Of a stretch of 64,000 nucleotides of DNA, positions 3,003-27,454 are shown one piece after another; the first letter of the stretch is position 1; every line of letters begins with the position of its first letter. This stretch comes from Sulfurimonas sp. GTDB taxonomy: Bacteria; Campylobacterota; Campylobacteria; Campylobacterales; Sulfurimonadaceae. The translations under genes and the position numbers were made by a program. The notes under the pieces were generated by a model, which was not told where the DNA came from, did not search any database, and saw only the letters and a program-made list of their open reading frames with translations. The stretch spans positions 28,284 through 92,283 of the forward strand of contig PPDH01000042.1 of NCBI GenBank assembly GCA_002899765.1. Direction: 5' to 3'.

Positions 3003-4517
3003 TTATATGGAATAATTATTTTGAGTTTGTGAGTTTATGTCTATTGATTTAAACTCACGTATAAGTTCTATTTGACGATTAGACAAGTATGCTTTTATAT
3101 CATGGATATTTTTTTGGCTAAGTTCATAAAGAACTACTATATTATAATCACGCTTATTTTCCTCTATCCTATAAATGCTTCCTAATGTACTTATTGTTAT
3201 TAACCTGCCTTTTAATTTTAGGCTTATGACCACTTTGATTCTTGTGCCTACCTCTATTCCGGCGGGGAGAGCATCTGTTTTTAACTTTGCAGAAACCTCT
3301 GATATATCCAAGACACTTGATTCACCGGGAAATTTTATATTTTTAAAGTATAACGTGCATCCATGATTAGCATCAGGTTCTAAGCGGATGTATTTTCTAT
3401 CGGCTGCGCTTCTTGATGCAAAAGTTACATCATCAATGACAATAGTTTGATTGTCAGAATCGATACTTTTTACCGATTTACAAATAACATCTTTTGGGAA
3501 TATTTCTGAGGTTATTGTCATATATCTAGTTATTTGTACAATTTTTAGTTGGGTATTGACTGTTTTTAGTGTGAAACTTTCTTTATTTATCTCTGTTATA
3601 ACTGCAGAGTTAACAATTGTCAATCCTTTATAAAAGTTGTGTATTTTAACTTCTGAAGAGTTGTCTTTAACAACTTGTAGAAGAGTTAAAATAGTCATCT
3701 TATCTTTTGAGTTTTCATCATTTTTTGCTGCATTTGAGTCAAAAAGAGACATTAGGTTTAGCTCTGTAACATCATCAAAAGAGAGAATGTAATAATCCTC
3801 TTTCTCAGGAATACTTCTTAGTTTTAGTATAAGGTGGCGTTTTTCGCCTTTATGGTTTTGTATTTTAGTATGATATAGCTTTCCGAGGTTTTTTACAGCG
3901 GTATTTATCCATTTTGATGAAGGAGTGCTGTATAAAAATTCTTTGTGTTCAAGTAGAAGTTTGTCGGCATCACCATATTTTTCATAGAACTCTTCTATAT
4001 TTTCAATACCAAAAAATTCATCGAAACGTCGGTTTACTAAAACAAATTTGTCTTTGTGCAGCATAATTACAATGTTGTTTTGATAGTTGAAAATATTTTG
4101 CAACTGATTTAAAAAAACACGGCTATTCTCTTCCTTGTGTATAGATATAACTGCATCGTAAAGAGTATTCACAAGTTCCGTTGCTTTTGCAGGTTTATGC
4201 AGGTAAGAAAACACACCCAATTTAATAGCTGTGTACAAATGCTTTTTTTCATCATAAGCCGAGAGGATTATAATTTTGCAATCAGGCTCTATCTCTTTAA
4301 TCTTTTTGATCATTTCAAAACCGTTCATGCCAGGCATATTTAAATCTGTTATAACGATATTGGGTCTAGAATGAATGCACTCAACATAACCTTCTTGACC
4401 ATTATTTGCTATAAAAATAGTTTTAAATATTCTGCTTAAAAGAGAGCGTATATTTTTTGAGAGACCTAAATTGTCTTCAACATACAAAATTGAAATTTTC
4501 TCAGAGAGGTTTTGCAT
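3003..4517 (-). CDS. Hybrid response regulator: N-terminal CheY-like receiver, central sensory/PilZN-like region, C-terminal PilZ-like domain
   Basis: Receiver motifs are present (ILYVEDN, ITDLNMPGMNG, phospho-acceptor Asp context, LHKP). The C-terminus carries RKYIR (RxxxR) followed by DISEVS (a near-canonical D-x-S-x-x-G PilZ motif). Confidence 0.7.
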   Translation of the reverse strand: MQNLSEKISILYVEDNLGLSKNIRSLLSRIFKTIFIANNGQEGYVECIHSRPNIVITDLNMPGMNGFEMIKKIKEIEPDCKIIILSAYDEKKHLYTAIKLGVFSYLHKPAKATELVNTLYDAVISIHKEENSRVFLNQLQNIFNYQNNIVIMLHKDKFVLVNRRFDEFFGIENIEEFYEKYGDADKLLLEHKEFLYSTPSSKWINTAVKNLGKLYHTKIQNHKGEKRHLILKLRSIPEKEDYYILSFDDVTELNLMSLFDSNAAKNDENSKDKMTILTLLQVVKDNSSEVKIHNFYKGLTIVNSAVITEINKESFTLKTVNTQLKIVQITRYMTITSEIFPKDVICKSVKSIDSDNQTIVIDDVTFASRSAADRKYIRLEPDANHGCTLYFKNIKFPGESSVLDISEVSAKLKTDALPAGIEVGTRIKVVISLKLKGRLITISTLGSIYRIEENKRDYNIVVLYELSQKNIHDIKAYLSNRQIELIREFKSIDINSQTQNNYSI

Positions 4518-24523: not shown

Positions 24524-25225
24524 TCATCTAAAAATGATTTGGATGTCTTTGTGTAGAAGTGAGCGGTTAAATTTATTTTTGGACTCTTTTAAATCTGCAA
24601 TGCTTGTACCTGTATCTAAAAACTCTTGTATATAGTAGACATTTTTGTAGCCTCTGGTTTTTAAATCATATATAATTTTATTTATATCGTTTTCGTCTAA
24701 TAAATCTCTGTGGATAGTAGTTCTGGCTTCAAAAGAGATGTCGCTCTTGATTAAAAAATCAAGTGTCTTTGAAAATTCGTCAAATTTATTTGAGTGTGTT
24801 ATCCGGCTGAATTTTTCTTCGGGTGCTTTATAGTCAAGTGCCACATAATCCAAAAGATTTAGTTCAAGAAGCTCTTTTACATGTGTAAAATTTGTACCGT
24901 TGGTGTCGAGTTTTATCTTAAAACCAAGCTCTTTTATTTTGCGGCAAAATGGAACTAAATCATAAGAAGAGGCTTCGCCGCCCGATAAGACAACCGCTTC
25001 GAGCAGATTTACTCTTGTTTTTAAAAAATCGAGGATATCGTTATAGCTGTATTTGCCCTCTTTGGCAAAAACTATATCTTTGTTGTAGCAGTAATCGCAT
25101 CGCATATTTCACCCACTAAACCACACTATACACGATAGGTGGTCTGGATAATCCAAGTGGGTAAATGATGTTAAATCATATATAAACTTAGCACTCAGTG
25201 AATTGTTTTCTCTGTTTGTGCTCAC
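24524..25225 (-). pseudogene. nrdG: Anaerobic ribonucleotide reductase activating protein (radical SAM), with an in-frame TGA (25109-25111) at the position of the first Cys of CX3CX2C. Candidate GTG start at 25225.
   Basis: The ORF-track ORF starts MRCDYCYNKD. Reading upstream in the same frame gives ...KFIYDLTSFTHLDYPDHLSCIVWFSG*NMRCDYCYNKD. This is the canonical activase N-terminus (DYPG...V.F..GCN.RC..C.N) with TGA in place of Cys. The frame is open back to TAG at 25235-25237. Confidence 0.75.
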
Positions 25226-25340
25226 CGGTTTTCCCTACGTTAAAACTCTCAACAGGTCTGTGATAACCCATAACTCTTGTGTAAACGATACATTTTTGTC
25301 TTCTGTCTTTTAACATAGCCAAAGCTTCATTTTTGCTCAT
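25188..25340 (-). CDS. 50-codon ORF encoding the class III RNR glycyl-radical motif as a stand-alone peptide (not in the ORF track)
   Basis: My translation: MSKNEALAMLKDRRQKCIVYTRVMGYHRPVESFNVGKTGEHKQRKQFTEC. RV-x-GY-x-RPV..(F/W)N.GK..E...R..F is the NrdD C-terminal glycyl-radical signature. GGAGG (25349-25353) lies 8 nt upstream of the ATG (25338-25340). The frame differs from nrdD. Confidence 0.7.
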   Translation of the reverse strand: MSKNEALAMLKDRRQKCIVYTRVMGYHRPVESFNVGKTGEHKQRKQFTEC

Positions 25341-25357
25341 TATTTTTACCTCCTTTA

Positions 25358-27454
25358 CTAAGATGCGATTGTGACTTCGCTTAAAAGCTCTTCGTCACAT
25401 TTTGGACAAAACTCATGTTCGCCTGCTATATACCCATGTTTTGGACATACAGAAAAGAGCGGTGTCACCGTAATATACGGAAGTCTGAAGTTTGTAATTA
25501 CATTTTTAACCAGTTTTCTACAAGCTTCTGTAGAACTTATTTTCTCTTGCATGTAGAGATGAAGAACGGTTCCTCCCGTATATTTGCACTGCAAATCATC
25601 TTGAAGTTCGAGCGCTCTAAACGGATCATCTGTTAAATCAACCGGAATTTGAGATGAGTTTGTATAGTAAATATTCTCTCCCATTCCTGCTTGAAGAATT
25701 GAATCGCCGTAACGTTTCTTATCCTCTTTTGCAAATCTGTAAGTAGTTCCCTCGGCAGGAGTTGCTTCAAGGTTATAAAGGTTTCCGGTCTCTTCTTGAA
25801 ACTGAACCATTCTATCACGAATGTACTCTAAAAGTTCGATTGCAAACTCTTCTCCACGTTTATCGGCGATATCATAACTGTCACTTGTAAAATTGCGAAT
25901 CATCTCGTTTATACCGTTAACCCCGATAGTTGAGAAATGATTTCTAAATCCCGGCAGATAACGTTTTGTATAAGGGAAAAGTCCTCTGTCATACATCTCT
26001 TGGATAAACACGCGTTTCTTCTCTAGTGTAGATTTTGCCATCTCCATAAGTTCATCCAAACGCTTGTAAATACCCTCTTTGTTGCCTTTATACAAGAATC
26101 CCAAGCGAGCCATATTTATGGTAACAACGCCGATTGAACCTGTCATCTCAGCTGAACCGAATAAACCGCCTCCACGCTTTAGAAGCTCACGTAAATCCAG
26201 TTGAAGTCTGCAGCACATACTTCTTACATGTCCAGGTTTATAAGCCTCTTCATTTGGTACAAGGTTTCCTTGAGCATCACGTTTATATTGTGAACCGATG
26301 AAATTTTGAAAGTATGACGAACCTACTTTTGCCGTATTCTCAAAAAGGATGTCGGTATTTTCTCCATACCAGTCAAAGTCTTCGGTAATATTTACCGTAG
26401 GAATCGGAAATGTAAACGGCTGACCCGTTAAATCCCCTTCAGTCATAATCTCATAGTATGCTTTGTTAATGAGATTCATCTCCGGTTGAAAATGTTTGTA
26501 TGTCATAGATTCAAGTGCTTTTGCACCTCTTATTTTCGCCTCTTCTTCAAGTTCGCTGTCTAAAACATTTTTAAAAAGGTGAAGCTGCATAGAAGTAGGT
26601 GTCTGATCTTTTAAATCATCGGGCACAGTCCAGTCTATAGTTATATTTGTAAACGGTGATTGTCCCCAGCGAGCAGGTACATTTAGGTTGTAAACAAAAC
26701 TTCTGATTGCTTTTTTAACTTCATTATACGGCAGTTTGTCTTTAAAAACGTACGGTGCCAAATAGGTGTCAAACGAGCTGAATGCTTGCGCACCCGCCCA
26801 CTCTGATTGGAGTATTCCTAAGAAGTTTGCCATTTGACCTAATGCTTCGCGGAAATGTCTTGGCGCACTGCTCTCAACTCTTCCTCTTACACCGTTAAAT
26901 CCTTCATCAAGCAGAACACGCAGAGACCATCCCGCGCAGTAGCCCGTAAGACAATCTAAATCATGGATATGATAGTCGCCGTTACGGTGTGCATATCCTT
27001 CTTCTTTGGAGTAGATTTTATCTAGCCAGTAGTTTGCTATAACTTTGCCCGCCGTGTTATTTACAAGACCTGCGTTGGAGTAACCCGTGTTTGAGTTGGC
27101 TTTGATGCGCCAATCGGTTCCTAAGATGTACTCTTCGATAGTTTGTGTGGAGTTGATATATGTAGTATCTTCATCGAGAACATGTTCTCTTTGCATTTTG
27201 TGTGTATGACGATATACCATAAACGAGCGCATTACATCAAAATATCTTGCTTTGTAGAGCTCTTTTTCTATTGAGTCTTGAATGTCTTCTACTGCAACAA
27301 CTCTTTTGTTTTTGATGCTATCAAGAACATTAAAAAATACTGCACTGTCATAGATAACATTTTGAGACTCAAAAGCTTTTTTAATAGCGTCTTCAATTTT
27401 AAAAGGCAAAAACTCTTTATACGTGCCATCTCTCTTTAAAATATTTTCAACCAT
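25358..27454 (-). CDS. nrdD: Anaerobic ribonucleoside-triphosphate reductase (class III) large polypeptide, lacking the glycyl-radical C-terminus
   Basis: 698 aa with an N-terminal ATP-cone-like segment, an NrdD core and a C-terminal Zn-ribbon (CPKHGYIAGEHEFCPKC). It ends ...LLSEVTIAS with no RVxGY motif. Confidence 0.9.
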   Translation of the reverse strand: MVENILKRDGTYKEFLPFKIEDAIKKAFESQNVIYDSAVFFNVLDSIKNKRVVAVEDIQDSIEKELYKARYFDVMRSFMVYRHTHKMQREHVLDEDTTYINSTQTIEEYILGTDWRIKANSNTGYSNAGLVNNTAGKVIANYWLDKIYSKEEGYAHRNGDYHIHDLDCLTGYCAGWSLRVLLDEGFNGVRGRVESSAPRHFREALGQMANFLGILQSEWAGAQAFSSFDTYLAPYVFKDKLPYNEVKKAIRSFVYNLNVPARWGQSPFTNITIDWTVPDDLKDQTPTSMQLHLFKNVLDSELEEEAKIRGAKALESMTYKHFQPEMNLINKAYYEIMTEGDLTGQPFTFPIPTVNITEDFDWYGENTDILFENTAKVGSSYFQNFIGSQYKRDAQGNLVPNEEAYKPGHVRSMCCRLQLDLRELLKRGGGLFGSAEMTGSIGVVTINMARLGFLYKGNKEGIYKRLDELMEMAKSTLEKKRVFIQEMYDRGLFPYTKRYLPGFRNHFSTIGVNGINEMIRNFTSDSYDIADKRGEEFAIELLEYIRDRMVQFQEETGNLYNLEATPAEGTTYRFAKEDKKRYGDSILQAGMGENIYYTNSSQIPVDLTDDPFRALELQDDLQCKYTGGTVLHLYMQEKISSTEACRKLVKNVITNFRLPYITVTPLFSVCPKHGYIAGEHEFCPKCDEELLSEVTIAS

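Follow-up and report, generated by a model that had tools for sequence, protein, structure and literature searches.

A class III ribonucleotide reductase of Sulfurimonas with its predicted glycyl-radical loop on a separately encoded 50-residue peptide

Glycyl-radical enzymes are usually described as storing their radical on a glycine within the C-terminal domain of the catalytic chain, and it is there that O2 cleaves the chain and destroys the enzyme. We investigated a 64,000-nucleotide (nt) stretch of DNA from Sulfurimonas sp. (hereafter the window; assembly GCA_002899765.1, contig PPDH01000042.1, positions 28,284 to 92,283), in which nrdD, encoding the large protein of a class III ribonucleotide reductase (RNR), a 50-codon open reading frame (ORF) that we call the mini-ORF, and the activase gene nrdG all lie on the minus strand. 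We conclude with good confidence that this locus encodes a naturally split class III RNR: its catalytic subunit would come from two genes, the 50-residue mini-ORF product serving as an obligate small subunit that brings in the glycyl-radical loop. The peptide is taken to be obligate because the large subunit never has a glycine loop of its own. Observed directly were the arrangement of the genes, their homology and conservation, purifying selection on the mini-ORF, its linkage to nrdG, and transcription of the locus.

The large subunit of 698 residues is encoded at 25358..27454 and ends in ...SVCPKHGYIAGEHEFCPKCDEELLSEVTIAS-TAG. The protein comprises an ATP-cone, a ten-stranded class III RNR barrel, a finger loop with the motif SMCCRL (Cys414/415) and a zinc ribbon CPKH...CPKC; it stops 12 residues past the ribbon and lacks the RVxGY loop, as the initial annotation had noticed. 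A spacer of 17 nt follows (25341..25357), within which GGAGG at 25349..25353 serves as the Shine-Dalgarno (SD) sequence of the mini-ORF. The mini-ORF itself (25188..25340) lies in another frame than nrdD and encodes MSKNEALAMLKDRRQKCIVYTRVMGYHRPVESFNVGKTGEHKQRKQFTEC, 50 residues, with the candidate radical glycine, Gly25, at codon 25266..25268. This gap, its GGAGG and the 50-codon ORF agree with the initial annotation, which had omitted the minus strand. We also recovered, as it had reported, the opening of the mini-ORF frame upstream of its start (18 codons 5' of the ATG, reaching some 11-12 codons into the end of nrdD) and the overlap of its last 38 nt with an extended nrdG frame beginning at GTG 25225. 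From this GTG, nrdG runs for 233 codons (24524..25225), and its product matches TIGR02495 with 150.9 bits (cutoff 131), so that a radical S-adenosylmethionine (SAM) activase adjoins the two reductase genes.

When aligned to family models, the two proteins appear as complementary pieces of a single one. The large subunit matches the Pfam NRDD model PF13597 over positions 2-532 of 562 (535 bits) and NCBIfam PRK08270 over positions 2-657 of 684, and the mini-ORF product matches the same two models over positions 531-562 of 562 (28.9 bits, cutoff 26.2) and 649-682 of 684, in addition to positions 549-580 of 581 in TIGR02487. The barrel is found on the 698-residue ORF by the Pfam NRDD and NCBIfam NrdD models, with NF006126 at 1090 bits (cutoff 548) and TIGR02487 at 409 bits (cutoff 326), and the ATP-cone by PF03477. 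The RVxGY loop, which a class III enzyme has on the barrel chain, is missing from it, and TRVMGY sits on the separate 50-residue ORF. The initial annotation had described a separately encoded glycyl-radical domain; this holds for the glycine loop and the stretch that follows it, but not for the zinc-ribbon half, which stays on the large protein. For the 50-residue protein PF13597 is the sole Pfam match at E<=0.1, with no match to PF01228 (Gly_radical).

Alignment with solved structures places the end of the large subunit at the same point. The 698-residue ORF aligns by sequence to the NrdD proteins of P. copri and T. maritima until their zinc ribbons and then stops; in these two enzymes the radical glycines, Gly711 and Gly621, follow within about 10 residues of the ribbon (PMC11226230, PMC4493059). 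Its C-P-K-H...C-P-K-C aligns with CxxC...CPKC of P. copri and with C...H...CPVC of T. maritima, as a predicted zinc site; the ribbon is here of the type C-x2-H...C-x2-C instead of four cysteines. The motif SMCCRLQLD, with Cys414/415 as the putative radical cysteine of the finger loop, is common to fused relatives, and the alignments to PDB chains skip this loop. The adjacent cysteines and the best match to NF006126 ('ribonucleoside triphosphate reductase') are leads, and only leads, toward the NrdD2 subtype, which in the summary of Wei et al. (2014) given in PMC4493059 is thioredoxin-dependent and has a third active-site cysteine and a glutamate.

The split is not confined to the window. A scan for the large subunit, with one genome per species, yielded 80 loci, 76 of which, all from Campylobacterota, were complete across the junction. 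In a listing of large-subunit homologues, identity is 85-95%. A stop codon separates the zinc ribbon from the glycine motif in 76/76, so that the comparison of nrdD 3' ends that the initial annotation had called for returned the split form at each of these loci. Relative to nrdD, the small ORF is shifted by +1 at 37 loci and by +2 at 27, and has an offset of 0 at 12; between 29 and 912 nt separate the nrdD stop from the TRVMGY motif downstream of it, and the tail that the large subunit keeps after CPxC is 8-30 residues long. Junctions range from ATGA overlaps and other overlaps of up to 31 nt, through 10-30 nt spacers with GGAG, to longer spacers; at some loci one or two complete genes intervene. 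An ATG of its own is present in every mini-ORF, and relatives with a spacer also have a GGAG-type SD.

In addition, the peptide belongs to a stand-alone family. A search with the 50-residue protein gave 1057 matches, of which the best 120 are all 49-77 residues long and come from Sulfurimonas, Arcobacteraceae and other Campylobacterota, annotated in some cases as 'anaerobic ribonucleoside-triphosphate reductase' and in others as 'hypothetical protein'. With a profile built from the peptide, 2232 of 1.84 billion cluster representatives (clustered at 50% identity) match at E<=1e-3, and 520 of them reach E<=1e-10; every one of the 150 best among the 2232 is a stand-alone protein of 49-145 residues. 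Since 144 of the 149 sequences retrieved begin with Met and CxxC occurs upstream of the motif in none of the 148 that bear it, these proteins are not fragments of fused NrdD. The stop at all 76 loci, the occurrence of all frame offsets and this stand-alone family together support the proposal of a separately encoded radical-bearing peptide, as made in the initial annotation.

We then asked of the mini-ORF what its substitutions say about coding. An alignment of 27 peptides from several Campylobacterota genera has 23 invariant positions. Over the 34-codon core in 79 loci, the mean synonymous difference pS is 0.77, which is saturated, and the mean nonsynonymous difference pN is 0.11 (ratio 0.14); a conserved block of nrdD gives a matching pN/pS of 0.16. 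Invariant residues of the core, among them Thr, Arg, Val, Gly, Pro and Ser, use 2-5 different codons each. Saturated synonymous sites together with nearly invariant amino acids indicate that the constraint acts on the protein in this frame and not on the RNA. Next to the glycine, a cysteine at position 17 (25290-25292; -8 from Gly25) is present in 139/148 representative clusters and in the fused Acidiphilium cryptum enzyme. In one relative (GCA_942491315.1, locus L085, about 3200-3353) an A-run at the start of the peptide gene is 1 nt shorter (ATGAGCAAAATG) and the gene caller predicts only 42 residues, an example of how easily so small a gene is damaged or missed in assemblies.

The initial annotation had offered as its alternative a recent 1-nt frameshift or an indel artefact, the true gene being one fused nrdD and the mini-ORF its displaced C-terminus. 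Viewed at this locus alone, the idea has some appeal: the mini-ORF frame stays open over roughly the last 11 codons of nrdD, where a single indel could fuse both, the same window has a probably erroneous base in nrdG, and the L085 assembly carries a 1-nt error inside its mini-ORF. It is nevertheless refuted by the 76 split loci, with their three offsets and with junctions that go from overlaps to spacers of about 850 nt and to intervening genes. A NrdD identical to that of the window occurs in contigs of five other samples, and the four that we fetched show the same stop, spacer and ATG (one of them with 99.9% DNA identity to the window over 7.1 kb); DNA contigs of public runs carry no indel at the nrdD/mini-ORF junction, and the split is also present on replicons that have been sequenced to completion, in C. 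necator H16 and in Bradyrhizobium. An artefact or recent frameshift is therefore next to impossible. Programmed recoding, by ribosomal frameshifting or stop read-through at the end of nrdD, might also yield a single fused NrdD in vivo, and the small offset and open frame across the junction in the window, as well as the ATGA-type overlaps of many relatives, would suit it. However, the event would have to be of a different kind in each genome, +1 here, +2 there, an in-frame stop elsewhere, over 29-912 nt and sometimes across one or two genes, whereas the mini-ORF always comes with its own ATG and, where a spacer exists, its own SD. No conserved slippery site was found, and folding of the mini-ORF region is not unusual on either strand. 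Because the required event would differ in every lineage, we exclude recoding with hardly any reservation.

We analysed transcription of the locus in public RNA data, whose assembled contigs carry no strand and give, through word depth, a crude measure of abundance. In two metatranscriptomes (runs X27 and X31), nrdG, mini-ORF and nrdD of relatives lie on single contigs, with no break at the mini-ORF. At about 25230-25347, the RNA-seq contigs of a cultured relative (four runs, X26, X28, X29 and X30) have word depths between 1e5 and 3.5e5; the values are 540-1180 in nrdD, 270-560 in nrdG and 15-1060 in other parts of a 20-kb stretch. The spike has a sharp edge at about 25350, which is its 5' side if it is sense, and at the other end tapers toward 25175-25240. 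Its contigs have loose ends that run into the relative's own nrdD 3' end, and the signal is therefore from the same locus and not from a paralogue. The spike is most economically read as sense RNA of the peptide cistron, present in high abundance. Such depth in four runs, on contigs without strand, could also mean that the region is mainly a small or antisense RNA, stable and non-coding, with an incidental ORF. We think this very unlikely: the signature of saturated synonymous sites and nearly invariant amino acids is that of a translated protein, the region has no Rfam match at or near the gathering score, no tRNA or tmRNA and no convincing promoter or terminator, on both strands it folds no more stably than shuffled controls (z = -0.54 and -0.01), and the two metatranscriptomes read through it without a break.

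A further possibility comes from the likeness, drawn in the initial annotation, to GrcA/YfiD, the spare part of pyruvate formate-lyase (PFL). Like GrcA/YfiD and the phage T4 protein Y06I, which act for this lyase, the peptide is a small separate protein with a candidate radical glycine and a cognate activase, and it would provide the loop for a barrel in which no functional loop is present. To this extent the concept stands; homology does not, as the peptide has no PF01228 match, and it is 50-70 residues long compared with 127 for GrcA, the rest of the domain being absent. The spare-part role fails as well, since GrcA backs up a full-length enzyme that has its own glycine domain, whereas the large subunit of the split NrdD is loopless in 76/76 loci. 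On a strict version of the idea, the peptide would rescue an O2-damaged full-length NrdD encoded elsewhere and the 698-residue neighbour would work otherwise. Spare parts are, according to a 2026 review, known for formate lyases and only for these (PMC13450708). We give the strict version very little credence: the adjacent large subunit lacks the loop at every locus examined and so needs a partner, its sequence is strongly conserved, as the identities and the NF006126 score given above attest, and in the genome paper of C. metallidurans NrdDG comprises Rmet_5137 and Rmet_5139 and no other gene (PMC2864759). Rmet_5138, lying between these two, would by our inference be the small ORF. A protein that does resemble a true spare part was seen in the archaeal virus ANMV-1, of uncultured methane-seep archaea (KP703175.1, locus L089, 2686-3120). 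It stands alone, has 144 residues and combines an NrdD-type zinc ribbon (CPKC) with the glycine loop (SRIVGYLRPVNQWNKGK), and among the genes annotated up to 3 kb to its left and right, none was seen to encode an NrdD barrel; judged by its sequence, it is a candidate for a true spare part of the host class III RNR.

For the split RNR that we favour, we propose the following mechanism. The peptide would be translated from its own SD and ATG, probably in translational coupling with nrdG, which its gene overlaps. NrdG, as a radical-SAM enzyme, would then abstract a hydrogen atom from Gly25, the peptide being either free or docked. Finally, the peptide loop would enter the large-subunit barrel beside Cys414/415, without a covalent bond, standing in for the covalent C-terminus of NrdD; we infer this docking from the way the two sequences complement each other. 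The activase of PFL takes short peptides as substrates. Glycyl-radical domains are mobile, and their glycine has to leave the barrel for activation (PMC11226230, PMC4493059). Taken together, these two properties make a non-covalent version plausible.

Several points weigh against this reading. Translation of the peptide, its activation by NrdG, its docking and its exchange are predictions. AlphaFold2 on an artificial fusion of NrdD and the peptide gave an unusable model, with a mean predicted local distance difference test (pLDDT) score of 44.8 and a predicted template modelling (pTM) score of 0.32, from a shallow alignment of large-subunit homologues only, each with 85% identity or more to the protein of the window. 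Neither the peptide nor the profile of 27 peptides retrieved any PDB chain by sequence, the query being too short. A second, fused nrdD may be encoded elsewhere in the genome, our view being that of the one window, and a TGA codon within nrdG would, if real, make the system inactive in this strain, although public reads disagree with it. Lastly, the benefit of separation, by which O2 cleavage would cost a 6-kDa peptide and not an 80-kDa enzyme, is a likely but unproven rationale.

We entertain a stronger form of the split only tentatively, and rather doubt it: that the peptide is a consumable radical cofactor, made in large molar excess over the barrel, activated by NrdG in the free state, co-translationally coupled to its activase and swapped after each oxygen hit. 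The molar excess is suggested by the roughly 300-fold RNA spike over the cistron in the one cultured Sulfurimonas relative. Sulfurimonas, Arcobacter, Cupriavidus, Ralstonia, Bradyrhizobium and Paracoccus are mostly microaerophiles, denitrifiers or facultative anaerobes. As a hypothesis, cheap replacement fits the lifestyles of these matched organisms as well as the RNA excess in one of them.

The small gene is more closely linked to nrdG than to nrdD. In 79/85 loci its ORF ends within the nrdG ORF, and the distance from the small-ORF stop to the CxxxCxxC codons of nrdG is nearly constant (median 76 nt), while that from nrdD to the small gene varies widely. This suggests translational coupling of the peptide substrate with its activase. 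In the window, an in-frame TGA at 25109..25111 replaces the first cysteine of CxxxCxxC, the cluster-binding motif (FSG*NMRCDYCYN). The motif is intact in 50/50 relatives in which it is detectable, with TGC or TGT as the first-cysteine codon in all 50; the 99.9% identical contig has TGC there, with a 233-residue nrdG called, and position 25109 reads G or A on the plus strand, never T, in four public DNA runs including the best-matching sample. We tried selenocysteine in NrdG as an explanation and rejected it on these same grounds. Comparison of the window with this contig (a JGI contig, L081) revealed seven differences, five of which are G-to-T on the plus strand (23049, 23679, 25109, 25841 and 29217), a one-sided pattern that suggests damage or sequencing error over natural variation. 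An error of assembly, or else a rare variant, is the probable source of the TGA.

Compared with fused NrdD/NrdG systems (T4, E. coli, T. maritima, P. copri and A. cryptum pACRY03), the locus has the same NRDD barrel, ATP-cone, SMCCRL motif, zinc ribbon, TRVMGY loop and adjacent activase, and the chemistry is presumably shared. It differs in that the glycine loop is on a separate chain with its own start, a stop, a spacer and an N-terminal extension taking the place of a linker of 4-11 residues. Benzylsuccinate synthase, with its beta and gamma subunits, and 4-hydroxyphenylacetate decarboxylase, with its gamma subunit, are likewise glycyl-radical enzymes that need extra small polypeptides; these are FeS-binding accessory subunits, and the radical glycine is on the large subunit. 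Splitting of a catalytic chain over two consecutive genes is known from the class II NrdJa/NrdJb of Pseudomonas aeruginosa (PMC4520616, PMC9669993). That pair, however, belongs to another RNR class and is broken at another point: NrdJb is a sizeable folded C-terminal module with a zinc finger and a redox tail and carries no radical, whereas the split of NrdD separates the radical store.

The retrieved peptides divide into two groups, one with YTRVMGY and a larger one with WTRVMGY. Members of the latter were located by tblastn on plasmids and chromids of Cupriavidus, Ralstonia, Bradyrhizobium, Paracoccus, Thiothrix, Allochromatium, Azospira and others. On pHG1 of C. necator H16 (RefSeq), a 676-residue 'ribonucleoside triphosphate reductase' is followed by a 142-nt spacer, a 66-residue 'nrdD' and an overlapping nrdG, and a Bradyrhizobium plasmid has the same layout; on about 160 further replicons of Ralstonia, Cupriavidus, Paracoccus, Thiothrix and Allochromatium, where the peptide gene alone was inspected, the peptide is present. 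In many of the plasmid and chromid records listed, the small gene is missing or labelled 'hypothetical'. The split form is, to go by these matches, a large family that extends over several proteobacterial classes and is not peculiar to the Sulfurimonas genome. In fused relatives of the same clade only 4-11 residues lie between CPxC and the glycine-loop segment: four in Geoalkalibacter NrdD, and 11 in the single 627-residue chain of A. cryptum pACRY03, which reads ...CPRC-AAEEPATIPRV-CEVWTRVMGYHRPVSSFNIGKQ... and contains CEVWTRVMGY. This short linker puts the fission point between the second CxxC of the ribbon and the glycine loop; in its stead, the split proteins have a 16-45 residue N-terminal extension on the peptide and the C-terminal tail on the large chain. 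The fused NrdD of A. cryptum JF-5 (L092, 1246-3129) apparently has no ATP-cone, and its glycine-loop segment is 82% identical to split proteobacterial peptides. Be it the ancestral form or the product of a secondary re-fusion, it is a useful natural control.

In the full-text literature that we searched, including papers on RNR phylogeny, we found no description of a split NrdD; the arrangement is visible in database annotation, and its biological point appears undescribed. If the peptide is indeed exchangeable, this would be the first glycyl-radical enzyme to keep its radical on a peptide able to dissociate, and recognition by the activase could be studied on it as a naturally minimal substrate. 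Exchange would keep class III RNR working in microaerophiles and denitrifiers at oxic-anoxic interfaces, and would suggest a cheap repair after O2 exposure for organisms of such boundaries. The two-piece system would also lend itself to the question of how an activase reaches a buried glycine, for which the domain must leave the barrel. For annotation, the consequence is that a 'NrdD' of 676-698 residues is easily mistaken for a complete enzyme, for instance when a Cupriavidus, Ralstonia or Sulfurimonas enzyme is expressed or reconstituted. The presence of the split in the genetically tractable C. necator H16 makes it directly testable; mutants in nrdD/nrdG are reported to grow anaerobically on nitrate only when given B12 (cited in PMC2864759).

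Two further observations concern the surroundings of the split genes. The isolate assembly of Fontibacter flavus CCM 7650, a member of Bacteroidota (L079), has on one 109-kb contig nrdG, the peptide gene and a split nrdD of Campylobacterota type (77% identity), which reflects either horizontal transfer or contamination. In some loci of Sulfurovum and Arcobacteraceae type, a PAC_bac protein (PF21758) of about 110 residues is encoded between nrdD and the peptide gene (L015 6094-6919, L020 6103-6888, L068 6097-6907, L069 6097-6907, L070 6091-6429 and L076 about 3969-4361), and four of these six loci add a NifU/IscU-like protein of about 160 residues that ends in Q(Q/T)(S/T)C(G/N). IscU-like domains have been reported in the C-termini of class II RNR (PMC9669993), and by analogy the PAC_bac and IscU-like proteins could be accessory or redox partners.

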